From positions 6,720,001 through 6,784,000 of the forward strand of contig JASGJH010000001.1 in assembly GCA_047601445.1 (NCBI GenBank): a stretch of DNA of 64,000 nucleotides, written 5' to 3'. The notes beneath the pieces were generated by a model. It was not told the DNA's origin and did no database searches. It saw only the letters and a program-made list of their open reading frames with translations. Shown here one piece after another: positions 12,994 through 25,813 of the stretch. Each line of letters opens with the position of its first letter. Within the stretch, counting starts at the first letter, position 1. The DNA is from Myxococcales bacterium. Lineage in GTDB: Bacteria; Myxococcota_A; Polyangia; Polyangiales; DASUME01. The translations under genes and the position numbers were made by a program.

Positions 12994-14607
12994 TCAGCGC
13001 CCCATGCGCGGTCCGGCACCCAGGCGCTCCTCCAGCAGCCTCTCCAGCGTGTCGCGATGTTCACAGGCCGCGAGCGCCACCGAGCGCGCGACGCGTCCCG
13101 AGCGCACCAGGCTCGCCAGGGAACGTGCCATCGGCACCATGCCCTCGTCGCCGCCGGTCTCGAGCTGGGTGGCCACCATGTGCGTCCGACCGTCACGAAT
13201 CTGCGACGCGATCGCGTGCGTCACCGTCAGGATCTCGACTGCCGGCAGGCGTCCGCCGCCGTTGGCTTGCACGAGTTGCTGCGCGACGATGTGGCGCAGG
13301 CTCGCGGCCAGCTCGTGGCGCACATGGGACTTTTCGCTTTCGGGGAAGCCATCGATCAGGCGATCGATGGCCATCACTGCGCTGCCGCTGTGAATGGTCG
13401 ACAGCACAAGGTGACCTGTCTGCGCGGCCGTCAGCGTCATGCGAATCGTCTCGGGGTCCCGCATCTCGCCGACCAGGAGCACGTCGGGATTCTCGCGCAG
13501 GGCTGCGCGCAACCCGCTCGCAAAGCCATCCACGTGCTCCCCTACTTCGCGCTGATGGATGATCGAGCGGCGCGGCCGGTAGATGTACTCGACGGGGTCT
13601 TCGAGCGTGACGATGTGGACGGCGCGGGTGCGGTTGATGTGCTCCAGGAGGGCTGCCAGGGTGGTGGACTTGCCCGAGCCCGTGGCGCCCGTGAACAGCA
13701 ACAGGCCCGTGCGTTGCTCCACCAACTGCGTGAGAGAAGCCGGCAGATGCAGGTCGGCCAGGCTGGGGATGTCGGCCACGATCGGGCGCAGTGCAATCGC
13801 CAATCCACCATCGTGACGGAAGGCATTGGCACGAAAGCGCACCCGTTCGCCGAGCGCGTCCGTGTGATGCAGCGCGAAGTCCACACTGCCCGTGTCCTCG
13901 AAGATGCGCTTCCGCTGGTGGCCAAGCTGCGACACGACGTAGGTCTCGATGCCGTCGCTCGTGATGGGCGCTGCCTCCTCGCACGGGACCAGCGTGCCAT
14001 CCACACGCAGCAAGGGGGCATGCCCGCTCGACACGATGACGTCGGAGGCGCGCCGGACGACCGCCTCTTCGAGGATGGCGTCGAGGGGGCCGATGTCGAA
14101 GGTTCTCGCAGTCTGTGCAGCAGCGGGATGGGCTGGCTCTTCGATCGGGAGGGCAGTCCTCGGTTCTGCGACCGGTGCTTCCTTCCTGGGCCGCGTGTGG
14201 GGAGGCTGAGGGTGGGGAGGCTGAGGGTGGGGAGACTGAGGGTGGGGAGACTGAGGGTGGGGCGCGGCGACCGAGGTCTCGCCGACCTTGTGCGCAGGAC
14301 CGGGCAGGAGGCGTGTCAGCGTGAACGCCAAGCTGTCATTCTGCGCGCGCGCGTGCACCGCGTAGGTTCCATAGGCGGAGGAGCGATAGGCGGCTTCCAC
14401 CGCTCCCAACTCGCGCAGTGCTGCTCGCTCGTCGGCGCTCAATAGATCATTGAGCACGTGTTCCATCATGTCCTGCGAGAGTGCGGGCATCGTGAGCGGT
14501 AGTCGCGCTCCCGAGAGCAGCAGCGCCGGCACTTCACCCAGGGCCAGCACCAGCCCCTCGGCGCGCTTCATGTCGACAATCCCCAGCAGGGTCTCGATCA
14601 CTCTCAT
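12994..14607 (-). CDS. pilT: PilT/PilU family retraction ATPase with extra N-terminal domain
   Basis: GATGSGKST, TLEDPVEY, QREVG, ALRENPDVLLVGEMRD, TGHLVLSTIH. Confidence 0.9.
   Translation of the reverse strand: MRVIETLLGIVDMKRAEGLVLALGEVPALLLSGARLPLTMPALSQDMMEHVLNDLLSADERAALRELGAVEAAYRSSAYGTYAVHARAQNDSLAFTLTRLLPGPAHKVGETSVAAPHPQSPHPQSPHPQPPHPQPPHTRPRKEAPVAEPRTALPIEEPAHPAAAQTARTFDIGPLDAILEEAVVRRASDVIVSSGHAPLLRVDGTLVPCEEAAPITSDGIETYVVSQLGHQRKRIFEDTGSVDFALHHTDALGERVRFRANAFRHDGGLAIALRPIVADIPSLADLHLPASLTQLVEQRTGLLLFTGATGSGKSTTLAALLEHINRTRAVHIVTLEDPVEYIYRPRRSIIHQREVGEHVDGFASGLRAALRENPDVLLVGEMRDPETIRMTLTAAQTGHLVLSTIHSGSAVMAIDRLIDGFPESEKSHVRHELAASLRHIVAQQLVQANGGGRLPAVEILTVTHAIASQIRDGRTHMVATQLETGGDEGMVPMARSLASLVRSGRVARSVALAACEHRDTLERLLEERLGAGPRMGR
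14198..14262. repeat. 15-bp tandem repeat x4 encoding PHPQ(S/P) linker in PilT
   Basis: tggggag(g/a)ctgaggg repeated four times. Confidence 0.9.
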
Positions 14608-14620
14608 GGGATTTTGGCAG

Positions 14621-14636
14621 AGCAAGAAGCGCGCCC
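14621..14636 (-). promoter_or_regulatory. Putative sigma-54 promoter of pilT
   Basis: Minus strand GGGCGCGCTTCTTGCT: GG-N10-GC with TTGC, just upstream of ATG 14607. Confidence 0.55.
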
Positions 14637-14820
14637 GTGGGCGTTCCTCGCTGAATTCTCGGGTTTTTGCCTGCGAGGCTGCTCCGCGCGCTGTCAAAAC
14701 GGCGTACGAGCGAGGGCCTCCACGTCAGTTTGTCGCGTCCGCCGGCCGCGACCAGGGGGAGCTGCGTGCTTACAGCCAAGTAGGTTCTCGCCGGGAATTC
14801 GAGCTAGCATTGGGAACCGA

Positions 14821-15429
14821 ATGCCCGACGACCGCCCCATTCTCGACCATCTGAGTGAGGGCGGGCCGCAGGTGACGGCGGTGAGAGGCACGCTGATCGT
14901 GTCTTCACTGCAAACCCTCCAGATGATGGGGCTCTACGAGCGCTATCTGATGAACTTGCCCGCGCCCGTGCACGATGATGTGCTGTTTGCCGTCGCCAAC
15001 AGCTGGCTTCCCGTGCAGGTGGCGATGGCGCACTACGGAGCGTGCGATGAGCTGGGGCTGTCAGAGCAGCAGCACACGCAGATCGGCGAGGCCGTCTCGC
15101 AGCGCATCATGGGGACCTTCCTGGGGACCCTGTTGCGGTCGGGGCGCGCGATGGGGGCAGCTCCCTCGCCCTGGATCGCCTTGAAGCAGTACGGACGCAT
15201 TTGTGATCGCCTGCTGCTGGGTGGAAGGCATCAAGTGTACGAGCTCGCCGGCAAGGACGCGGTCATCGATACGCGCGGTGTGCCCATGTTCCGATACCAG
15301 TACTTCCGCACGGCGACCGTGGGCATCGCACGCGGCGCAGCGGGCATGTTCGCCAAGACCATCTATGCGCGAGAGCTGGCGCGGACGCCGGACCGTGAGC
15401 AGATTCGAGTGTCGCTGCGCTGGGTTTGA
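14821..15429 (+). CDS. Myxobacterial hypothetical protein (DUF2378-like)
   Basis: VRGTLIVSSL...SWLPV..AMAHY.AC...W-V C-terminus resembles this expanded family. Confidence 0.6.
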   Translation: MPDDRPILDHLSEGGPQVTAVRGTLIVSSLQTLQMMGLYERYLMNLPAPVHDDVLFAVANSWLPVQVAMAHYGACDELGLSEQQHTQIGEAVSQRIMGTFLGTLLRSGRAMGAAPSPWIALKQYGRICDRLLLGGRHQVYELAGKDAVIDTRGVPMFRYQYFRTATVGIARGAAGMFAKTIYARELARTPDREQIRVSLRWV

Positions 15430-15455
15430 GAAGGCTGCCGCCGCAACAAGGCTGG

Positions 15456-16650
15456 CTAGAACGACCCGATCAAGAAGGAGCTCAGTGCGACCCGCGAGAG
15501 GTTGGGATCGGTGCCCCACCAATAGGTGAAGTTGGGGCCCGCGCCGAGGCCCCAGCTCTCCGTGAGATGGACGACCAGGGGCATGGCGATCCCAAAGCTG
15601 AGGGCCGTGGACCTGAAATCGGTCTGGGTCGACGAGTAGGAGTCGTAGTCGTAGGGGACGTGATAGTTGTTGTGGACCCAAGCGACGCCGAGCGCAGGCC
15701 ACAGCCAGAGGCCCACGTTGGCTCCGACCCGGGCTTCGTAGATCGCGTGCACGCTGCCACCCATGACGAGGGATTGCCGATTAAATCCGTAGCCCAGCGC
15801 TTCGTCTTGGCGCGACACGAGCAAGCTGGCTCCGATCGCGAATCGCTCGGCGATGAAATAGGCGAAGCCAGGCGTGAGCCCGAGGTTCCAGTGCCGCGAG
15901 TACCCGCTTGGCGAGTCGAGCCCGATGGTGACGCCGCCAGTCAGCATCCTTCGCCCGCGCGAGGTGAGCTTCGTTGTCTTCTTCTGTCGTGACACCTGCT
16001 CGGCGACGTCGTCGGCCCCGAACGATGCGGCGGTGGGCGCTCCACTCCCCGACACGAGCCGCAAGGCGCGGATCGCTGCAAGTTCGAGCTCAGCGGCTCG
16101 ACGCCGCTTTCGAACCGAATGAATCTTGATGGACCCGTAGATCGTGGCAGCCGTCGCGAGGATACCGGCCGCAAGGAGGGTCGCACCGATCCGACGCTCT
16201 CGTGCACCTTCCGAGGGCGAATAGGCGGGGTCATCGGGATAGTCTTTGTAGGTGTTCCCGTCCTCGACCAAGAGCGCGCCGATGGGCAGCAAGAATCGCG
16301 AGAGCAGGAATCCCCAGGCCCACCGAGAGACCGGGCAGCACCAATGAATTCCCGTCCAGCTCACGGGTGAGGGCCTCTTCGCGTTGGTCGAGTTGGCTCG
16401 CAGCGCGCGCGACTTCCACGGGGGAGGGGGCGGAAGGCGGCACGGATACCGCACTCGGAGGAGTGGATTCAAGGGCCGTTGAAGTGGATTCAAGGGCCGT
16501 TGAAGTGGATTCAGCGACCGGTGGAGCGGCTTCAGGGGCCAGAGGAGCCGATTCAGGGGCTGGAGGAGCGTCTTCCTGTGCAAGGGCGGAGCTGGGCAAG
16601 CCGAGCGAGACCACACAGGCGACGGACAGAATCGTACGGAAGAACGCCAA
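15456..16650 (-). CDS. Exported protein with hydrophobic hairpin and C-terminal outer-membrane beta-barrel, split by +1 frameshift near 16294
   Basis: Signal ending ALA-Q in ORF 16231-16650 joins LLPIGALLVE in frame 15456-16784; barrel strands (PGFAYFIAERFAIG) and terminal Phe. Confidence 0.65.
16462..16513. repeat. 21-bp tandem repeat x2.5 (ESTSTAL)
   Basis: agtggattcaagggccgttga twice plus a partial copy. Confidence 0.85.
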
Positions 16651-16845
16651 GGAGCACCGTCTAAGGCTGGAGACTCGGCACGCCTATCACAGCCCTGATA
16701 GCAGGCCAAACTCGAGCAGGGGTGACGACGCGCGGCTGTCGAAGGAACGGCCAGGGGTGATGCCCGCGACGAGTCTTGACCCATCGGTACCCACTATGCG
16801 CGGATGCGGCTTCAAAGCGCTTCCTTTGCTGGGGGACCCTACCTT

Positions 16846-18126
16846 ATGAGCCGACTCACTCGTACCGTCGCGGCCGCCGCCGCAACCCTTCTCGCCGCCG
16901 CTAGCAGCGGTGCCTGTGGCGACGGCGACGACCACGCTGCGCAGGGCGAGCTCGATGGTTCGGTTCGTCATGCTGATGCGTCGAATGACGGTGGCGGTCA
17001 CCCAGCGACCGACAATTCGGAGCCCGAAGCGGGCCCACTGTGGCACTTGAACGACGCGCTACGCGGCGGCGACCTGGGGGAGCCGGCACAGAGCAATCTC
17101 TTTTACTCGCCGCTGAGCATCGGCACTGCACTCGGCATGGTCTACGCGGGCGCCGCTGGGGACACCGAGCTGGAGCTGCACACCTTGCTCGCTCCCGGGA
17201 GGACGTTCGACGAGTTCCACGCGGATCTGGGTCAGCTTTTCTCCACGCTCGTCAGCATGGAGCCTGGTGGCAACACACTGCAGATTGCCAATGCGATCTT
17301 TCCTCGGCCAGGCTTCGAGCTCGAGCCGGCCTACCAACAGACGCTGGCGGACCGCTACCGCGCCGCGATCATGGTGACCGACTTTGCGAGCCCCGAGGCC
17401 GCGTCCATGATCAACAAGTGGACGTCGGAGCAGACCGGTGGACACATCCCGAAGCTGTTCGAAGAGGGGCAGCTGGACGCGACGACGGTGTGTGCGCTCG
17501 TCAATGCCATCTACTTCAAGGCCACGTGGAAGACCTCCTTCGACACGGCCAACACCGGCAACCAATCGTTCACTCTCGAGAGTGGTGAGAAGGTGACGGT
17601 GTCCATGATGCACGGCGAGGGGATGCCCGCGCGCATGGGCGAGATTGGCAGAGCGCAGGTGCTCGAACTGCCCTACCAGGGAGATGACCTGCGCTTCGTG
17701 GCCATCCTGCCGGGTTACGGGCAAACGGTCGCGGACCTCGAGAGCGACCTCGCGACGGAGGACGTAAGCACGGCCCTGAAGGCCACGCGCAACGTCCATG
17801 CGAAAGTGGCCATGCCTCGCTTCACCATGCGCAGCCGACTCGACTTGATTCCACCGCTGCGCAAGCTCGGGGTCACGACCCTCTTCGAGCCTGGCGCCAA
17901 TCTCACGCGCATGAGCGCCTCCACGGACATGTTCATCGACGTGGTGGTGCACGAAGCCTGGGTCGCGGTGGACGAAAACGGCACAGAGGCCGCCGCAGCC
18001 ACGGGCGCCGCCGGGCAAGAGTTCAGCGACCCTAGCATCACGTTGAACAGCCCCTTCCTGTTCTTGATCCGCGATGCCAAGAGTGGAGCCATTCTGTTCG
18101 AAGGTCGCGTGATGGACCCGCGTTAG
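16846..18126 (+). CDS. Serpin family protease inhibitor, lipoprotein
   Basis: NLFYSPLSI, INKWTSEQTGGHI, LVNAIYFKATW, hinge DENGTEAAAAT, PFLFLIRD..SGAILF.GRV.DP. Confidence 0.95.
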   Translation: MSRLTRTVAAAAATLLAAASSGACGDGDDHAAQGELDGSVRHADASNDGGGHPATDNSEPEAGPLWHLNDALRGGDLGEPAQSNLFYSPLSIGTALGMVYAGAAGDTELELHTLLAPGRTFDEFHADLGQLFSTLVSMEPGGNTLQIANAIFPRPGFELEPAYQQTLADRYRAAIMVTDFASPEAASMINKWTSEQTGGHIPKLFEEGQLDATTVCALVNAIYFKATWKTSFDTANTGNQSFTLESGEKVTVSMMHGEGMPARMGEIGRAQVLELPYQGDDLRFVAILPGYGQTVADLESDLATEDVSTALKATRNVHAKVAMPRFTMRSRLDLIPPLRKLGVTTLFEPGANLTRMSASTDMFIDVVVHEAWVAVDENGTEAAAATGAAGQEFSDPSITLNSPFLFLIRDAKSGAILFEGRVMDPR

Positions 18127-18193
18127 GCCTCAGGGATCCTCAAACGGCTCCAAACTTTCACCGGAACGCCACAGGCCCACTGCATAAGGGCTC

Positions 18194-20212
18194 ATGGTGC
18201 GCCAGCTCGTCGTATCGCCATCGCGGTTTGCTTCGATCCTTCCTCGCCTTGGACTCCTGTGCGCCTTGCTGCTCGCGGCGACGGGATGTGACGGTGATTC
18301 CAAGATTTCGCCTGGCGCGGCGCCTCCTCCTGCGGATGCCGGTACGTCGGGAACGAAGTTCTATGAGGTCGAGCTCGATGGTCGCATGGCCGTGCTCGAG
18401 CTCGTGCCCAACGAGGGCGTTCTCGCGAAGGACTACCGCGAGTACATGGCGACGTCCGACGGCCTCGAAGAGATGCCGACGCCGGGGAACCGGACTGCGT
18501 GCATGTTCCGTGGAGGTGCGGCCTGGGCCGACGGCGCGGACAGCACGGGGCCACGCTGGAGCGCGCTGAATACCTGCGCTGGTTTCCAGGGATTGATCGC
18601 CCTCGACGGTGAGACCTTCATTCTTGCGCCTGGTGGTGCGGACAACGAGGTCTTGGTCTCTCGCTTGAGTGAAGGGGCCAACGCACCGGTCACCCGCGCC
18701 CGGATCCGCCTGATCGAGCGTGCGCACGGCACCGTGCAAGGGCTGACCGCGGCGCTGGTCACGCCGACCCGATATCTGGAGCTCGTGGTGGTGAGCGATG
18801 CGGCTCGCTTCGAAGCACTCGGTATGGATGCGATGACGGACGCGGTGCAGATCGCGAACTTGACCGATGCCATCTATCGGAACGGGACGATATCGCCTGC
18901 GGTCGCCATCGTCGTCACGGCCAACGTCGTGATTCCCGGTGGTACGGACCCCTGGACCGTCCCGCCCTCGGGGGACGTGGACCCATCGGTGGTGCTGACG
19001 AACTTCTCGGGCTGGGCACGTACCCATCTGCTCAAGGGCGACGAGCATTTCCTGCTCACACAGCGTGAACTGACGGATGCGACGGTCGGGCTCACCTACG
19101 TGAGTGCGGCATGCAAGACCTTCAAGCAAGGCATGGTGCAAGCTACGTTTCCGCAAGCGATCACTGCGACGACGCTCGCGCACGAGCTGGGACACAGCCT
19201 TGGCATGTCGCACGATGGCAGTTCAGCATCCTGCCCCTCGGGTCCCTGGATCATGGCTCCGAACGTGTCGACGCCACCCGCGACGACCTGGTCTGCGTGC
19301 AGCGGGACGGCGCTCGCGAGCTATGTAGCTTCGCTCGGGTCGCCTGGATGCCTCGATAACGTCCCCGTCCCGGACACCACAGCGCCGACCTGTGGTGATG
19401 GCTTCCGTGATCCTGGCGAGCACTGTGACTGCGGCAGCAACGACTGCACCGGCTTCGACCCCTGCTGCAACGGGCTCACCTGCCAGCTCGTCGCGGGCGC
19501 CAGTTGCAGTCAGCTGGATGGTTGCTGCAACAACTGCCAGGTCGCGCCACAAGGCACCACCTGTGAGGCCGCGACGGTGTGCTCGCCGGCAGCGGTCTGT
19601 TCGGGCACCAGCTCGGCCTGTCCGAAACCCGCACCGTTTGCCAACGGCAGCGCCTGCGCCGTCGCTGGATTCACGGATGGCGTTTGCTTCCAGGGCCAGT
19701 GCGAGAGCCTCGGCCAGCAATGTGACGACGTACGTCCTGGCTCCGTTCCTTGCGGGACCGGGTGCGACGCTCTCCCCTGCCGAGATGCGACCTACGGGTG
19801 CGTCGACTGGCTAGTGGAGGCTCAGGACGGCACGCGCTGCGGCAGCGGTCGCCAGTGCGACCAGGGGAGCTGCGTACTCACCTCCACGCTTGCGTTGTGT
19901 GCCCACGACCTGCCCACGAACGCGTGCGGCGGCTGCTCCAGCTTGGCCGTCGCCCCCGGCACCGCCTGCAACACCTGCGGCGTGATGAACTGCGTCTCGC
20001 CGAGCGAAGTGAGGTGCAGTGTCGCCAACGCGAGTGCGTGTCCGAACCCCAACGCCAGCCCCGTGCCAGTGGGCTCTACCAGTCACCTGCTGCTGGTCGC
20101 CTTGGCGTTGCTGGCGATGGGAGGACTGGGCTTGTCCCGCGAGTTCGCCATCACACGCCTGGAAAAACTCCGAGGCGCGCGGGCTCGCGTATACAATCGC
20201 GCCCATGAGTAG
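18194..20212 (+). CDS. ADAM-like metalloprotease (M12B propeptide, reprolysin, disintegrin, Cys-rich, C-terminal TM)
   Basis: YLELVVVSD, HELGHSLGMSHD, Met-turn WIMAP, CGDG...GEHCDCG...DPCC...CQL..GASC, DGTRCG.GRQC. Confidence 0.9.
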   Translation: MVRQLVVSPSRFASILPRLGLLCALLLAATGCDGDSKISPGAAPPPADAGTSGTKFYEVELDGRMAVLELVPNEGVLAKDYREYMATSDGLEEMPTPGNRTACMFRGGAAWADGADSTGPRWSALNTCAGFQGLIALDGETFILAPGGADNEVLVSRLSEGANAPVTRARIRLIERAHGTVQGLTAALVTPTRYLELVVVSDAARFEALGMDAMTDAVQIANLTDAIYRNGTISPAVAIVVTANVVIPGGTDPWTVPPSGDVDPSVVLTNFSGWARTHLLKGDEHFLLTQRELTDATVGLTYVSAACKTFKQGMVQATFPQAITATTLAHELGHSLGMSHDGSSASCPSGPWIMAPNVSTPPATTWSACSGTALASYVASLGSPGCLDNVPVPDTTAPTCGDGFRDPGEHCDCGSNDCTGFDPCCNGLTCQLVAGASCSQLDGCCNNCQVAPQGTTCEAATVCSPAAVCSGTSSACPKPAPFANGSACAVAGFTDGVCFQGQCESLGQQCDDVRPGSVPCGTGCDALPCRDATYGCVDWLVEAQDGTRCGSGRQCDQGSCVLTSTLALCAHDLPTNACGGCSSLAVAPGTACNTCGVMNCVSPSEVRCSVANASACPNPNASPVPVGSTSHLLLVALALLAMGGLGLSREFAITRLEKLRGARARVYNRAHE

Positions 20213-20618
20213 TACCCATGCCGACGAGCCGCTGCACCCGAACGTCGCGGCCTACTGGCGCTTGATCGAGGCCTTCAATCGCAACGACCTGGAGACCGTG
20301 GGCGCGGTGCTCGACCCGGACATCGTTTACACCATCCCGGGCCAAAGTGCGGTCGCTGCCCGCACACGTGGAATCACCGCTCACTTGGAAGCGCTGCGAC
20401 GCACCCGTGAGCGAAGCGGCAATACACTCAAACTGGAACCGAAGACCGTGGTGGCGGGCGGTGACCGAGTGTTCGTGTTCGGACGCATTTCCGCCGAGCG
20501 CAACGGTGTGCACTTCGAGAGCGACCACTATGTGGTCTTTCGATTTGCGAACGGTCGCATCGTGGAAGGCATCACACTACCTGTCGATCAGTACGCCTTC
20601 GACGCGTTTTGGGCCTGA
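20205..20618 (+). CDS. NTF2/SnoaL-like protein
   Basis: EAFNRNDL...LDPDIVYTIPG...FRFANGRIVE..DQYAFDAFW; overlaps the ADAM stop codon. Confidence 0.85.
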   Translation: MSSTHADEPLHPNVAAYWRLIEAFNRNDLETVGAVLDPDIVYTIPGQSAVAARTRGITAHLEALRRTRERSGNTLKLEPKTVVAGGDRVFVFGRISAERNGVHFESDHYVVFRFANGRIVEGITLPVDQYAFDAFWA

Positions 20619-20737
20619 GTAGGATTTCGTTGTGCCGCATGGAGTGGCTTTGTACGATCCCCTTCGAGCTTGATGCCGCGTTTGCGCCTTTCTACGAGTG
20701 AGAGAGCACGAGCAGCGGTCACAGCGGAGCGAAAGCT

Positions 20738-21205
20738 ATGTCGTACACGTCTTGCGTTCTTCCGGGGCTAGTCACCATCCGTTGGGGAGAAACCCCCGAC
20801 CCGATCGATGTCCACGCCTATGCCGGTGAGCTCGCGCGAGCGCGCCAACAGCAAGGCAAGCCACCGATTGCGATGTTCATCATGCCGGTCGACAGCGGCG
20901 CGCCCTCGGAGGAATTCCGCAAGGCCCAGGCTGGCATGTTGCCGTCGATCATGGCGAACATCGACTACGCGGTGGCGGTGTTCGAGGGCACCGGCTTTAC
21001 CTCGAGCCTGAAGCGCAGCGCCCTGGTGGCCATTCTCTTCCTCTCTGGCAAACGTCACGCGGTTCACGTTCGGTCGACCGTCGAGGAAGCGCTGGTCCGC
21101 GATCCGCCAAAACCGCTCTCCTTCGACGGATCGAAGGCCATCGCCGAGCTCAGTCGTCGGGGCATCCTCACGAAGGATGTCAGCCTCGCTTCGCACGGGG
21201 TCTGA
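20738..21205 (+). CDS. Myxobacterial STAS/SEC14-like hypothetical protein
   Basis: APSEEFRK...AVAVFEGTGF..SLKRS pattern. Confidence 0.55.
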   Translation: MSYTSCVLPGLVTIRWGETPDPIDVHAYAGELARARQQQGKPPIAMFIMPVDSGAPSEEFRKAQAGMLPSIMANIDYAVAVFEGTGFTSSLKRSALVAILFLSGKRHAVHVRSTVEEALVRDPPKPLSFDGSKAIAELSRRGILTKDVSLASHGV

Positions 21206-21217
21206 CCCGCCTCGGCC

Positions 21218-23089
21218 CTAGCGCTTGGCGGCATCCACGGACGCGAAGAACTGCGCGAGCGTCTGAACGCGTCGCACCAGGGTCGGCGGAGCCTCGCTCG
21301 GATCGACCACCGCGTCGATGAGCACCGGGCCGTCGCTTTGCAGCGCCTCGGTGAGCGCACGCCGGAACTCGGACACGCTGGTCGCGCGCACGCCCCGGGC
21401 GCCCATCGCGCAGGCCATGGCCGCGCAATCGATGGGCACATTGTACAGCGCCACGCCCAGGTCCTTGCCCTTCATGAGCTTGTCACCGTGGTGCACCATG
21501 CCGTGGCCGCCGTTGTTCAGGACGACCCACACGATGGGCAGGCGTTGCTCCACCGCGGTGTGGACCTCCCACCCGGTCATCGCGAAGGCACCATCGCCGA
21601 CCAGTGCCACCGCTCTGCGCTTGGGCGCCGCCATGGCCGCGCCGACCACGCCTGCGACCGCGCTGCCCATGCAGGAGAGGCCCAGGTCGATGAAATAGGT
21701 GTCGGGCTTGCGAGCCTCGAAGTAGTGGGTGCCCCACAGAATGCTGTTGCCGTTGTCGACGAAGAGCATCGTGTCGTCGCTCATGGCGTCGCGTAGCTCC
21801 TTCATCACGGCCTGCGCGCGCAGTGGGCTCTGTTCGTGGGCGACTGGGGTGGCCACCGTGCGGAGATCGGGCGCTTCGAGGCGGTGCCAGTTCTCTTCCA
21901 CCGGCGCACGCTCGGACAACGCGAGCCCCGCCGTGAGCTCGTGCAGCGTGGCGCGTGCGTCACCCACCACGGCGACGTCGACTGGATAGTTCTTGCCGAT
22001 CGATCCGGCGTCGATGTCGATATGGATGCACACGGTGTCCGGATGCAGCTTCAGCGTCCAGGCGTTGGTGACGAACTCGTTCATGCTCGAGCCCACGATC
22101 ACCAGCGCATCGGCGGCGCCGGAGGCGAGCAGCTCCTCCACCTTGCCTTGGCCCCCAAAGCCCAGCACGCCCAGGGAGAGCGGGTGGTTCTCGGGGAATG
22201 CCCCCTTGCCTTTCGGAGAGGTCGCTACCGGTGCGCCGAGTGTGCACGCAAGCTGCATAAGCTCGTCGAACGCCTTGGAGCAGGAGACACCGTAGCCCGC
22301 CAGAATGCAGGGTCGCGTCGACGTCGACAGCGCGGATACGGCATCCGCCACGGCCTGGGTATCCACGGGCCTCGCGTCCATCGAGCGATACTCCGCGGGC
22401 TTGAGCGGCTCGTACTTGATGGGCCGTGAGATGATGTCGGCCGGCATGCTCAGATGCACGGGCCCGTGCCGTCCCGAGAAGGCAGTGCGGATCGCGAGCC
22501 TCAGAATGTCCGGGCCGCGTCCCGCCTCGGGCAAGCTCGCCGAGAGCTTGGTCACAGGTCGAAACATCTCGACGACATCGATGCCGTGGATGGAGCTCTC
22601 CTGGATCGCTCCCTTGCCATAGACGAAGCGCGCGACCTGTCCCGTGAGCATCAGCACAGGAAGCGACTCCGTGTACGCGCTCGCGATACCCGTGAGGGCG
22701 TTGGTCGCACCTGGTCCGCTCGTAGCGCAGCACACCGCGAGAGTCCGCGTGATGCGCGCGTGGGCCGCGGCCATGAACGCGGCACCTGCTTCATGCTTGG
22801 CGAGCACGAAGCGGATGGTCTTGCGTGCATGCATCGCCTCGAAGAGGCCAGTGAGCGGCCCGCCGGGAACACCGAAGATCGCGGTAACCCCCTCGGCCTC
22901 CAGGATGTCGAGGAATGCATTGGCGACCGTGGTCTCCACCGCGGGCGCGCGCCTGCGCTGCGGAATGACGCCAGTACGGCGGCCGCGTGTGAGCGACTCG
23001 CGATCGTTGGCCGGAGTTTGGGTCGCGAACTTGCTCAGGCCATGGGGGGCCGTGAGCTCGTCGTGTGAGCGCGTCTTGGGTACTGCCAT
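21218..23089 (-). CDS. Thiamine-pyrophosphate enzyme (acetolactate synthase large-subunit-like)
   Basis: IFGVPGG, KHEAGAAFMA, TSGPGATN, GDGAF...NNGG TPP motif. Confidence 0.9.
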   Translation of the reverse strand: MAVPKTRSHDELTAPHGLSKFATQTPANDRESLTRGRRTGVIPQRRRAPAVETTVANAFLDILEAEGVTAIFGVPGGPLTGLFEAMHARKTIRFVLAKHEAGAAFMAAAHARITRTLAVCCATSGPGATNALTGIASAYTESLPVLMLTGQVARFVYGKGAIQESSIHGIDVVEMFRPVTKLSASLPEAGRGPDILRLAIRTAFSGRHGPVHLSMPADIISRPIKYEPLKPAEYRSMDARPVDTQAVADAVSALSTSTRPCILAGYGVSCSKAFDELMQLACTLGAPVATSPKGKGAFPENHPLSLGVLGFGGQGKVEELLASGAADALVIVGSSMNEFVTNAWTLKLHPDTVCIHIDIDAGSIGKNYPVDVAVVGDARATLHELTAGLALSERAPVEENWHRLEAPDLRTVATPVAHEQSPLRAQAVMKELRDAMSDDTMLFVDNGNSILWGTHYFEARKPDTYFIDLGLSCMGSAVAGVVGAAMAAPKRRAVALVGDGAFAMTGWEVHTAVEQRLPIVWVVLNNGGHGMVHHGDKLMKGKDLGVALYNVPIDCAAMACAMGARGVRATSVSEFRRALTEALQSDGPVLIDAVVDPSEAPPTLVRRVQTLAQFFASVDAAKR

Positions 23090-23295
23090 AGGGGGTGCGA
23101 GGTGCAGCCACGCGGCGAACGGCTCGCGACGGTGCGTAAATGATCCTCGCTATGCAGTTGAGCAAACATTGTCCCTGCGTCGCAAGGCGCAAAATTGGTT
23201 GCAACGCCTGCGTACACCGCTTGTTTCCCATGCGCTGCTACGCACGGCGTCGCCCAGCTACATGGCCCCAGACGGGACCGAGCCAATGTGAGCAG

Positions 23296-24438
23296 TCAAT
23301 TCGTGCAGACGGGAACTTCGACGGGCACACACACGCCGCCTTCGCAACGACGGCTCTCGCACTCCGGGGTGGCGCGGCAAGACTCGCCCGCGCTCAACGG
23401 GGGCGTGCAAAGGAACCTTTCATTGCAGAAGAGCCCCGGTTCGCACCGCTGTTGGCCGTTGCAACTTTGACCGTTTCCGACTCGCTCGACTGCTGCGCAC
23501 GTCCGCGTCGCCTCGTCGCAGCGTAGGTCCTTCGTCACGTCGCAGACATGGAACGTGCCGTCGTCGGCGATGCTGAACTCGCCGTCGGTGACGCAAGTTT
23601 CGCCCTCGGTGCGCAGCGTCACCGCCACGCACGTTCTGCCCGCTCCCGCGCCCGCGCCTGCGCCCGCTCCCGTGCACAGCGCTCCGCGGACGCAGCGGTC
23701 GGTGTCGTTGCACGGTTGGCCCGCGGCGACCGGCAGTCGACAGGTGCCGTCCGGATGGCAGTAGGCGTCTTCTTCGCAAACATGGCCCGCGACGGCGCAG
23801 GATTCGCCCACCGTGACCGTTCGAGCTACCACGCAGACGCTCTGGAGGTCCTTGCCGCGGAGGCACGCGACGAACGCCTCGCCTGATTGCTCACAGCCGA
23901 CGCTCTCGACACAGGGCCCCCCGAGCTTGGCTGGAGCGGGCGCCGCACCGCACTGGCCACACGACGCGCGCGAGCCGCCCTCGCAGTTACGGGAGCTGCA
24001 CTCTTGGTGCGACGCACAGGACGCGCCCTGGGCCAACGTCCCGACCAGCGCGAGGCCGCAGATGACGTCGGACTCGCATGAGCTGATGGCTGCCAAACAG
24101 CGCTCGGCCGCCTTCGGCTCGATCTTCGTGTGCCCGCGCGCAACGAGGGTTTGGAGCTCATCGTCCTCGTCGATGTAGTCCGCGCAGCCATCGGCCAGGC
24201 CAATGCCCACGCTGGAAGGGCCGACGGCATGGATCTGATCGGAGCACCTCGCGACGTACTCGCAGACCGCGCTATTGCGAGCCGCGATGAACTCCTTGGG
24301 GGTCATGTCTCCGGACGAACCGCCGTTCGAGCAACTCGCGAGGCCGAGGAGGGTCAGCGGAAGAAGGGAGGGGGCGAGCCTGGACGGGCGGAAGGAGCTT
24401 GAACGGTCGGGGGCCGCGGGGGCCGAGAACATGAGCAT
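23296..24438 (-). CDS. Cys-rich repeat lipoprotein
   Basis: Lipobox LAS-C; repeated GESC/GQPC..C units. Confidence 0.7.
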   Translation of the reverse strand: MLMFSAPAAPDRSSSFRPSRLAPSLLPLTLLGLASCSNGGSSGDMTPKEFIAARNSAVCEYVARCSDQIHAVGPSSVGIGLADGCADYIDEDDELQTLVARGHTKIEPKAAERCLAAISSCESDVICGLALVGTLAQGASCASHQECSSRNCEGGSRASCGQCGAAPAPAKLGGPCVESVGCEQSGEAFVACLRGKDLQSVCVVARTVTVGESCAVAGHVCEEDAYCHPDGTCRLPVAAGQPCNDTDRCVRGALCTGAGAGAGAGAGRTCVAVTLRTEGETCVTDGEFSIADDGTFHVCDVTKDLRCDEATRTCAAVERVGNGQSCNGQQRCEPGLFCNERFLCTPPLSAGESCRATPECESRRCEGGVCVPVEVPVCTN

Positions 24439-24449
24439 GCCGCAGGCAA

Positions 24450-24465
24450 AGCAACCGTTGTGCCG
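24450..24465 (-). promoter_or_regulatory. Putative sigma-54 promoter
   Basis: Minus strand CGGCACAACGGTTGCT, near-consensus GGCAC-N5-TTGC. Confidence 0.7.
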
Positions 24466-24631
24466 AAGGTTGAGGCGCCAAATCGGGGCCCGGCGGCCCT
24501 CGGGTGGCATGTCGTTCACAAATTGGCGTGAGCCGCAGGCACGCTGGGCCATTCAGGCCCGTCCGTGCCCCTCGGTTCACGGGTCCAGTTGTCTGCGGGC
24601 CCGAAGGGCTCCGGGTCGAGCGGGGCCTACC

Positions 24632-25813
24632 TCAGCGTACGCACGTCGGTCCACGGGGCCTGCCGACCCGAGGTCTACGGCGCCAGGCCACGGTCGCCGC
24701 GAGGGCCGCCAGGATGAACACGCCCGGCGTTGGTGGCATCGACCTACGCGTCGCGATGCTGCAGCCATCGTCAGCCGAGCCCTGGCTTGGCTCGAAGTCG
24801 ACGGATCCATGGGCTGCGCCGCCGTCAGCCTTGCCTTCGTCACTATCTTCGGCTCCGGCATCCTCCTCGGCTTCGTTCTGGTCGTCCGTGTCGTCCGCCA
24901 TTCCGCTCGCGCCCGAGTCTGCGGTCTTTCCAGCGTCGCTCGCCGATCCCGCGTCGACATGGCTTCCTGCATCACGATCAGTCCCCGTTGACCCTCCGCT
25001 GGATCCGCGCGGCACGTACTGGTCGATGAAGTCGAGGTATGGGTCCACGCGTTGGTAGTGCGAGGCCATTCGACAGCGGCTCGCGTCGCCGGTCTCGTCG
25101 CTATAGGAGTCCGTTCCGATGATGGTCCAGACGCCGTTGACCTCCGCGAGCACCGGGCCGCCCGAATCCCCGACGCAGGCATGTTGCACGGTGTCGCCTA
25201 CCGTGATCGTGTCGGTGGGATCGAGCTTGGCCGAGAGTTCGTCTGCCCTGTACTTGGTCACCGCAAAGGTCGTGTCCCGGTCGTGCGTCTTTCCGTAGCC
25301 GACGATGCTGACGTTGCCGAGAACCGCGGCGGTTGGCTTGGTGCGGAGGATAGGGAGCGCTGTCACGTTCTTGAGGCTGTCTTGCAGGATCACCAGACCG
25401 ATGTCGTAGTATCCATTGCTGGTCACGTACTCGGGATGCAGGTGGACGGCCTTGGCCATGTGAAGTTGAGCTTTGACGCTCGACTGGCTGGGATCGATCG
25501 GTGTGCCGAGAGCTTTCCCGTCGTCGCCGAGATAGGCCGCGTTGTACTCGTGGTTCGAGTCCAAGCAGTGAGCCGCCGTGAGCAGGACGTTCGGCGCCAC
25601 CACCTCGGCCGTGCAGGAGCCGAGCGTTCCCACCGGATCGGAGGAATCCCATGAGAGCAGCAGGACTACGTTCGGATCACCTCGATCCCGCGTTCCGCCA
25701 GCGAGCTCCAGCGATGTCGCATTCACGTTCTCGTCGGGACCGGAGTCGCAAGCGAGGGGGAGTGCCAAGAGAGGCACGAGCAGGGCAAGCTGGGGTCGGT
25801 TTCTGATGCGCAT
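24632..25813 (-). CDS. Trypsin-like (S1) serine protease with MYXO-CTERM
   Basis: TAAHC, DIGL, GDSGGP triad motifs; lipobox; C-terminal GCSIA...TM...RRR. Confidence 0.9.
   Translation of the reverse strand: MRIRNRPQLALLVPLLALPLACDSGPDENVNATSLELAGGTRDRGDPNVVLLLSWDSSDPVGTLGSCTAEVVAPNVLLTAAHCLDSNHEYNAAYLGDDGKALGTPIDPSQSSVKAQLHMAKAVHLHPEYVTSNGYYDIGLVILQDSLKNVTALPILRTKPTAAVLGNVSIVGYGKTHDRDTTFAVTKYRADELSAKLDPTDTITVGDTVQHACVGDSGGPVLAEVNGVWTIIGTDSYSDETGDASRCRMASHYQRVDPYLDFIDQYVPRGSSGGSTGTDRDAGSHVDAGSASDAGKTADSGASGMADDTDDQNEAEEDAGAEDSDEGKADGGAAHGSVDFEPSQGSADDGCSIATRRSMPPTPGVFILAALAATVAWRRRPRVGRPRGPTCVR

Follow-up and report, generated by a model that had tools for sequence, protein, structure and literature searches.

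ADAM proteases are usually treated as eukaryotic proteins. The snake venom metalloproteinases (SVMPs) are secreted, recently derived descendants of animal ADAMs without a membrane anchor, and fragilysin consists of a catalytic domain and an unrelated prodomain, with neither a disintegrin nor a Cys-rich domain. According to the papers cited here, ADAMs are present in fungi and Adam genes may date to the opisthokont ancestor (PMC2770060); the M12 family, said to be metazoan for the most part, was weighed as a possible outgroup in work on matrix metalloproteinases (MMPs; PMC12587646); the catalytic domain of fragilysin was proposed to be a xenologue of adamalysin/ADAM (PMC9848320); the timing and direction of crossings between bacteria and eukaryotes were recently addressed for astacins and MMPs (PMC9848320; PMC12587646); and the Pfam family 'disintegrin' is listed for the Minicystis rosea genome among the families unique to that species in its comparison (PMC8436480). 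In the literature searched, no account of bacterial proteins that have the ADAM architecture in full was found. The present analysis concerns an ADAM-like gene of a Myxococcales bacterium, contained in a window (the whole stretch of DNA analysed, 64,000 nucleotides, contig positions 6,720,001-6,784,000) within a single contig of 9,502,601 bases. Its open reading frame (ORF), which encodes 672 aa, is listed in the ORF table of the window (18194..20212, + strand). The product is genuinely homologous to eukaryotic ADAMs and has the order pro-M12B, disintegrin, Cys-rich and C-terminal helix, as determined by using hidden Markov models (HMMs) and a predicted structure. It is a new, uncharacterised bacterial member of a known family, from a clade that has been flagged by automatic annotation and appears to be undescribed in print.

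All features of the gene are on the + strand and are given with residue numbers followed by window positions. Conservation was assessed in three alignments: A1 (11 rows, including animal and protist ADAMs), A2 (43 rows) and A3 (10 rows). The signal peptide with lipobox (residues 1-32, LAATG-C32; 18194..18289) was identified from the translation and the lipobox pattern; a hydropathy check placed a hydrophobic segment (residues 12-30) ahead of the lipobox LLLAATG-C32, and the nearly invariant lipobox Cys is kept in 9 of the 10 rows of A3. The protein has the motif of a bacterial lipoprotein (predicted signal peptidase II substrate), and lipidation is predicted. The prodomain (residues 33-189; 18290..18760), assigned by Pfam and the structural model, has the conserved residues C103 and C128, and the Pep_M12B_propep family (PF01562) was matched at residues 52-107 (18347-18514) with 27.2 bits against a cut-off of 23.7 in the Pfam scan. 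The Reprolysin (M12B) catalytic domain (residues 193-391; 18770..19366; PF01421, E 1e-24) begins YLELVVVSD; it contains the zinc motif HELGHSLGMSHD (residues 330-341; 19181-19216), which is of the HExxHxxGxxHD type, and the Met-turn residue M354 (19253-19255). No row of A1, with its animal and protist ADAMs, or of A3 departs from H330, E331, H334, H340, D341 or M354, and H330, E331, G333, D341 and M354 are invariant in A2.

The disintegrin domain (residues 406-478; 19409..19627; PF00200) was matched over profile positions 1-74 of 75 with 49.3 bits against a Pfam cut-off of 35.1; a whole-genome search returned the same place, and this gene gave the sole disintegrin match in its genome. Its Cys pattern is invariant between the query, fish ADAM28, a newt ADAM9-like protein and a protist ADAM in A1. 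Judged by its profile coverage, it is a whole domain and no generic repeat. The Cys-rich domain, of the ADAM/SVMP type and shorter than that of SVMPs (residues ~479-566; 19628..19891), was delimited by profile and model, the Cys-rich region extending to DGTRCGSGRQCDQGSC (~residue 560). It is followed by a Cys-containing linker with 8 Cys (residues 567-616; 19892..20041), which occupies the EGF-like position of ADAMs, had no match in any Pfam family and aligns with CPxDxxKxxPGxCGCG-type repeats in relatives (consensus of A2). A C-terminal hydrophobic helix (residues 629-647), a 25-residue basic tail and the stop codon complete the frame (20078..20212); the hydropathy maximum (1.89) falls on residues 629-647 and the following 25 residues hold 7 Arg/Lys. 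Helix and tail correspond to the single helix and tail of ADAMs, and they may serve as a permanent anchor or as a sorting tag, either being possible.

Sequence comparison by using phmmer against the PDB sequences gave catrocollastatin (E 1.5e-42, residues 190-514) and ADAM22 (E 7e-27). A family profile built from ten bacterial family members matched AaHIV, a P-III SVMP, with E 1.9e-79; profile positions 181-571 were aligned with chain positions 4-414 of 417, that is, with the whole metalloproteinase-disintegrin-Cys-rich (MDC) body, and ~25 SVMP residues in the middle of the Cys-rich (C) domain were without counterpart in the bacterial profile. An AlphaFold2 model of the protein was built on a 43-row alignment of bacterial homologues (mean predicted local distance difference test score (pLDDT) 80.5; predicted template modelling score (pTM) 0.70). 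Model confidence was high for residues 50 to ~575 (pLDDT ~90 for residues 50-175 and ~92 for the Cys-rich domain) and low for residues 580-672 (pLDDT < 60 from ~580). Foldseek ranked P-III SVMPs first (E ~1e-26), then zymogen ADAM17 (~1e-22), ADAM22 and ADAM10. By using VIA-align, model residues 51-393 were superimposed on the pro and metalloproteinase domains of zymogen ADAM17 (9o54_A; Z 27.1, root-mean-square deviation (rmsd) 3.5 Å, 304 residues); the ADAM8 catalytic domain (Z 25.8, rmsd 2.0 Å, 192 residues), the ADAM22 ectodomain (Z 24.4-24.6, 363-366 residues, model 190-581) and SVMPs (Z ~24, model 190-567) were matched likewise. The profile and fold matches therefore support each of the four domains, from the prodomain through the catalytic and disintegrin domains to the Cys-rich domain, the last by profile and fold and not by Pfam.

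An initial annotation of this DNA had read from it a lipobox signal, an ADAM/reprolysin propeptide, the catalytic start with zinc motif and Met-turn, the disintegrin Cys pattern and a C-terminal transmembrane segment, and all of these stand. The HMM scan that it proposed put Pep_M12B_propep, Reprolysin and Disintegrin over their cut-offs, with ADAM_CR as the exception, and the proposed structure comparison returned SVMPs, ADAM17, ADAM22 and ADAM10. Its Cys-rich domain was upheld by family profile and by fold (SVMPs, ADAM22), but Pfam ADAM_CR (PF08516) had no match at E ≤ 1 in the protein and a match to ADAMTS_CR_2 stayed below threshold (19.7 vs 27.3 bits). To call the ADAM architecture 'complete' was an overstatement, since the cysteine switch and the EGF-like domain are absent: no xCGV switch was found near the prodomain end, zero Cys being present between C128 and C307, and no EGF family of Pfam matched the protein at E ≤ 1. 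Both animal ADAMs of A1 carry a Cys at the switch position, as do 8 of 43 bacterial relatives (P0142, P0034, P0056, P0094, P0089, L006, P0060 and P0044); in these proteins the motif around it is mostly CGV-like (CG[VT]-type or similar). No TSP1 family of Pfam matched the protein, so the defining feature of an ADAMTS is missing. As a side observation, two metagenome relatives, P0003 (961 aa) and P0004 (793 aa), have an ADAMTS-like layout, in which the Cys-rich domain is followed by two or three repeats of the TSP1_ADAMTS family; the C terminus of P0004 reads GCGC…helix…RR tail. In a relative from another genome of the same order (L003:238-2700, + strand; genome G311), the zinc motif is HEMGHNLWMPHD, Trp replacing the metzincin-conserved Gly, and that protein is also MYXO-CTERM-tagged.

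The ADAM-like gene is a resident bacterial gene and no contaminant: the genome is one contig, the codon use of the gene resembles that of its host, and a bacterial lipobox is encoded. GC content is even across the window, and the genes flanking the ADAM-like gene are ordinary bacterial genes. Its GC content at third codon positions (GC3) is 0.774, compared with 0.823 ± 0.049 for 4473 long reference ORFs with the host codon-position pattern (16.5th percentile), and its index resembling the codon adaptation index (CAI) lies at the 22nd percentile; both values are within about one standard deviation of the genome. The initial annotation was thus right to call codon use host-like. Its myxobacterial host was also confirmed: the genome gave 26 matches to the MYXO-CTERM model (TIGR03901) at E ≤ 1, 10 of them over the cut-off and none at the ADAM gene, whereas none of 14 control genomes had a match over the cut-off.

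The architecture would be an artefact if eukaryotic DNA had contaminated the assembly, if the assembly were chimeric, or if generic myxobacterial Cys repeats resembled a disintegrin by chance. The phylum sample (401 genomes, including G000, the window genome) lends this some colour, in that the Pfam Disintegrin model matched 93 of the genomes, mostly through partial repeats (positions ~45-75) in non-protease proteins. Against it stand the 9.5-Mb contig, the ordinary bacterial neighbours and the host GC and codon use, on which contamination and chimerism were rejected, and the near-complete Disintegrin match, on which generic repeats were rejected for this protein, partial matches being common in the phylum. 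Moreover, prodomain, catalytic and Cys-rich domains were matched independently, and six further prokaryote genomes of the phylum contain homologues. On these data, the probability of an artefact is negligible. A lack of propeptide or disintegrin matches and a chimeric contig, which the initial annotation had named as grounds for giving up its claim, were looked for and neither was found.

That annotation stated that bacteria usually carry reprolysin-like catalytic domains only. There is a whole, diverse bacterial clade with such an architecture, and the protein is one of its members and no singular case. Among its 40 nearest relatives (9 congeners and 31 genomes from the same order; completeness 54-100%), no genome had a match to the protein. 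The family profile matched 16 of the 401 phylum genomes at E ≤ 1e-10. The span from prodomain through catalytic and disintegrin to Cys-rich domain was found in seven (G000, G311, G272, G232, G114, G194 and G414); the match in G198 ends inside the disintegrin, and eight genomes hold the prodomain and/or the catalytic domain only. A HMMER search of 1.84 billion cluster representatives gave 2930 proteins at E ≤ 1e-3, of which 267 had E ≤ 1e-30. The closest representatives are bacterial-looking; the top relatives were P0002, which is as long as the query and 57% identical to it where the two match, and P0003 (60%), and many high-ranking matches have lipoboxes, C-terminal Cys...helix...RRRR tails and a GC-rich amino-acid make-up. 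P0002 has been named 'disintegrin and metalloproteinase domain-containing protein 9' by JGI, and P0021, a protein of a Myxococcota metagenome-assembled genome (MAG) at NCBI, carries the name 'reprolysin family propeptide-containing metallopeptidase, partial'. L022 comes from a Bradymonadia MAG and L025 from a Myxococcota MAG; Bradymonadia is a class of Myxococcota, and every labelled member of the bacterial clade is from Myxococcota, labels being available for few. A back-translated pattern search with the single protein returned no close relatives, and the 43-row alignment yielded no conserved stretch for such a pattern. Among the matches listed for a 10-row pattern search (43 loci), one, from a Bradymonadia MAG, reaches the disintegrin and Cys-rich (D/C) domains and five include the prodomain; the other loci are catalytic-domain matches from many phyla. 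As a separate observation, a tandem Cys repeat of ~30 residues, which matches only the C-terminal half of Disintegrin (positions ~29-75), was seen in proteins without a protease domain; arrays include L011:2-1477 (-), L013:1-2583 (-) and L010, with frames of up to 7515 aa. NCBIfam has no name of its own for this repeat.

Trees were calculated to place the bacterial proteins. In a FastTree phylogeny (163 rows), a 47-row clade apart from the animal group (SH-like support 97) united the query with 43 database proteins and three genome loci. IQ-TREE quick trees (70 rows, 386 columns from the catalytic to the Cys-rich domain) were calculated under LG+G4 and LG+C20 with posterior mean site frequencies (PMSF). 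Both recovered the animal ADAM clade (support 100 and 99) and grouped most of the eukaryotic rows (36 rows, support 97; 34 rows, support 90). For seven of the 23 'microbial eukaryote' rows, the source is labelled as eukaryotic (Ploeotia vitrea, Nonionella stella, Polarella glacialis, Ancoracysta twista, Cercozoa sp. and two further EukProt entries), the other 16 being unlabelled. Judged from these trees, the bacterial ADAM-like proteins are an old, diverse group outside the animal ADAMs. The phylogeny that the initial annotation had called for was obtained with animal and protist rows, from which the bacteria are separate, although the sample was without fungal ADAMs. An ADAMTS outgroup placed the root among long bacterial branches, with a long-branch warning, and an outgroup of nine catalytic-only bacterial reprolysins gave a backbone polytomy; neither yielded a trustworthy root.

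The suggestion that the gene was either acquired from a eukaryote or informative about ADAM origins is at most tenable: the bacterial proteins group separately from the ADAMs of animals and protists, the root could not be placed, and the direction of transfer between bacteria and eukaryotes is unreadable from unrooted trees. Transfer from a eukaryote to a bacterium would be the more economical reading, because the family is broad in eukaryotic supergroups and confined to one bacterial phylum. The reverse course, in which the MDC architecture is native to Myxococcota and was passed to an early eukaryote, so that ADAMs would be of bacterial origin, is unlikely. Several observations keep it in play: the bacterial proteins diverge from one another (~30% identity) as much as from eukaryotic ADAMs, they are nested in no eukaryotic group, a cysteine switch is kept by some of them, the phylum is rich in half-disintegrin repeats (Disintegrin score over the Pfam cut-off in 80 of 401 genomes), and the trees are unrooted.

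The C-terminal tail bears on the location of the protein. Its order is Cys616, helix and basic tail, and the nearest homologue, P0002, ends GGRRRR. The MYXO-CTERM model had no match to the protein at E ≤ 1, either in the protein scan or in the genome search; the relative L003 was matched with 30.4 bits against a cut-off of 20. In a diderm cell, a C-terminal helix without sorting holds a protein in the inner membrane. The MYXO-CTERM tag has been described as universal in Myxococcota (PMC11980579). The surface sheddase of the initial annotation is therefore a conjecture only, as the tail is without a MYXO-CTERM match and the helix alone would point to the inner membrane. The chances of a cell-surface location, reached through a degenerate MYXO-CTERM-like route, are put at just short of even; tethering to the inner membrane, facing the periplasm, is a substantial possibility at somewhat below even, and release from the cell is unlikely.

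Taken together, the protein is probably a bacterial adamalysin/ADAM (MEROPS M12B), in which a eukaryotic MDC body is combined with bacterial targeting, from an old Myxococcota clade. On this reading, it would be exported by Sec, processed by signal peptidase II and lipidated at C32, for which the motif is present. It would fold in the oxidising periplasm, where its 40 remaining Cys are expected to be paired (~20 disulfides) because their count is even and the ADAM pattern is conserved. It may be made as a latent zymogen, the prodomain packing on the catalytic domain in the model as in zymogen ADAM17; such latency would have to do without a cysteine switch, for which the protein lacks the Cys. 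Removal of the prodomain would release an active zinc endopeptidase, as suggested by the intact catalytic, Met-turn and calcium-site residues. By homology with ADAMs and P-III SVMPs, the disintegrin/Cys-rich arm may act as a substrate-selecting exosite, and the C-terminal helix would tether the enzyme to the cell envelope. The Myxococcota clade itself, which is old, diverse and patchy in its distribution, would be linked to the eukaryotic ADAMs by an ancient inter-domain transfer.

The gene upstream of the ADAM-like gene, at a distance of 67 bases, encodes a serpin (16804..18126, + strand; Pfam Serpin, E 1.3e-92), which likewise has a lipobox (…SSGAC) and whose hinge, GTEAAAATG, is of the inhibitory type. 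A second serpin copy is present in the genome inside a 930-aa frame, and serpin paralogues (31-37% identity) were found in 7 of 9 congeners. No terminator-like site was found between the serpin and the ADAM-like gene, and the two are possibly co-transcribed. In six other genomes, the ADAM-like gene had neither a serpin nor any other common neighbour next to it. In congener G007, matches were obtained for window positions 13036-14607 and 20207-23092, with nothing for 14610-20200; its flanks are on separate contigs and its synteny with the window genome is fragmentary throughout. The evidence for an island at 14610-20200 is weak, because the flanks lie on different contigs and synteny is broken everywhere. 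The four genes within 14610-20207 (two ORFs of unknown function, the serpin and the ADAM-like gene) are without counterpart beside the G007 flanking genes, and their codon adaptation is somewhat low (6th to 35th percentile). Elsewhere in the window, a 393-aa ORF (24632-25813, - strand) shows the trypsin-family motifs TAAHC and GDSGGP by eye in its translation; beyond them lies an acidic stretch of low complexity, and its C terminus has a hydrophobic segment. The ORF at 23296-24552 (- strand) encodes a Cys-rich protein of 417 aa that looks secreted, contains a (GA)n stretch and had no Pfam or NCBIfam match. The ORF at 12994-14697 (- strand) is PilT/secretion-ATPase-like by eye (Walker motifs), with an N-terminal, proline-rich PHPQ(S/P) repeat.

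Several findings weigh against an envelope-bound, ADAM-type protease from an old Myxococcota clade. The absence of the cysteine switch of ADAM and SVMP prodomains weakens the case for latency. Neither ADAM_CR nor any EGF family was matched, residues 580-672 are of low confidence in the model, and the 'xCD' of the disintegrin loop, which most bacterial relatives keep, is VCS in this protein. The tail fails the MYXO-CTERM model despite 10 matches over the cut-off in the same genome, which by itself favours retention in the inner membrane over surface display. No conserved gene neighbourhood hints at a substrate. Most members of the bacterial clade are from unlabelled metagenome contigs, and their bacterial origin was deduced from lipoboxes, C-terminal tails and composition. 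Finally, the free IQ-TREE quick trees split the bacteria into a main group and unresolved lineages, with 4 label changes. In favour of one bacterial clade, a tree in which the 29 bacterial rows were constrained together, a group chosen partly after the FastTree result, exceeded the free quick tree by 67 log-likelihood units and was not rejected (p-AU 0.944, LG+G4).

Two other functions were considered. The protein could be a secreted or surface weapon against eukaryotes or prey (amoebae, nematodes, fungi, microbes) that cuts foreign surface or matrix proteins, the D/C arm binding the target. Myxobacteria are predators, P-III SVMPs are the closest solved structures, the TSP1_ADAMTS repeats of P0003 and P0004 are matrix-binding modules, and protease-related secreted neighbours (the serpin and the S1-like protease) are at hand. 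The likeness to venom enzymes, however, is an ancestry shared with all ADAMs, helix and lipobox favour tethering over release, and neither a secretion-system gene nor a conserved partner is nearby; a weapon is accordingly improbable. Alternatively, the MDC body could serve for binding only, the protein being an adhesin or receptor without catalysis, as are ADAM22 and further inactive ADAMs. ADAM22 did match the query well and L003 has Trp in place of the zinc-motif Gly, yet the query itself keeps HExxHxxGxxHD, the Met-turn and Asp341, which are invariant across the alignments, and this makes a purely binding role very unlikely.

In the preferred reading of a bacterial ADAM, a bacterial clade has kept the prodomain, catalytic, disintegrin and Cys-rich domains and has refitted them with a lipobox and, in relatives, with a MYXO-CTERM tag. 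The surprise is tempered in that the case is no one-off and automatic annotation already names such proteins. The clade offers a tractable system for the control of an ADAM-type enzyme by a D/C arm and by a prodomain without a cysteine switch, the whole protein being expected to need ~20 disulfides, and a dataset for when and in which direction the ADAM family crossed between bacteria and eukaryotes. The protein is, besides, a candidate envelope protease in social, predatory organisms.

Among the known systems, fragilysin, the Bacteroides fragilis toxin, likewise has a bacterial M12B-type catalytic domain; the query scored 11.2 bits on the fragilysin family model (TIGR03935), for which the NCBIfam cut-off is 190.7. 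With MYXO-CTERM proteins such as TraA it shares the order of Cys (C616), helix and basic tail, but its tail is unrecognised by TIGR03901; in relatives of the query, the C terminus consists of a Cys motif, then a helix and then a tail rich in Arg. ADAM-like proteins of microbial eukaryotes have the same M-D(-C) core, with 30-37% identity to the query over the matched stretches, and fall with or beside the animal ADAMs, outside the bacterial group. P-III SVMPs (catrocollastatin/VAP2, AaHIV, VAP1 and ecarin) are the best matches in sequence and fold over the whole of M-D-C, the bacterial C domain being ~25 residues shorter. The closest animal ADAMs are ADAM9/ADAM28-like proteins by sequence and the ADAM17 zymogen and ADAM22 ectodomain by structure. 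The query differs from them in its low identity (26-30% only), in having a lipoprotein signal instead of a plain signal peptide, in its place in a bacterial clade outside the animal clade (support 97-100), in its shorter C domain and in the absence of a cysteine switch, a furin-type site, an EGF-like domain and a Pfam ADAM_CR match. It is like them in the order of its domains, the helix and the short basic tail, in the zinc motif with an Asp after the third His, in the Met-turn and in the Cys pattern of the D and C domains.

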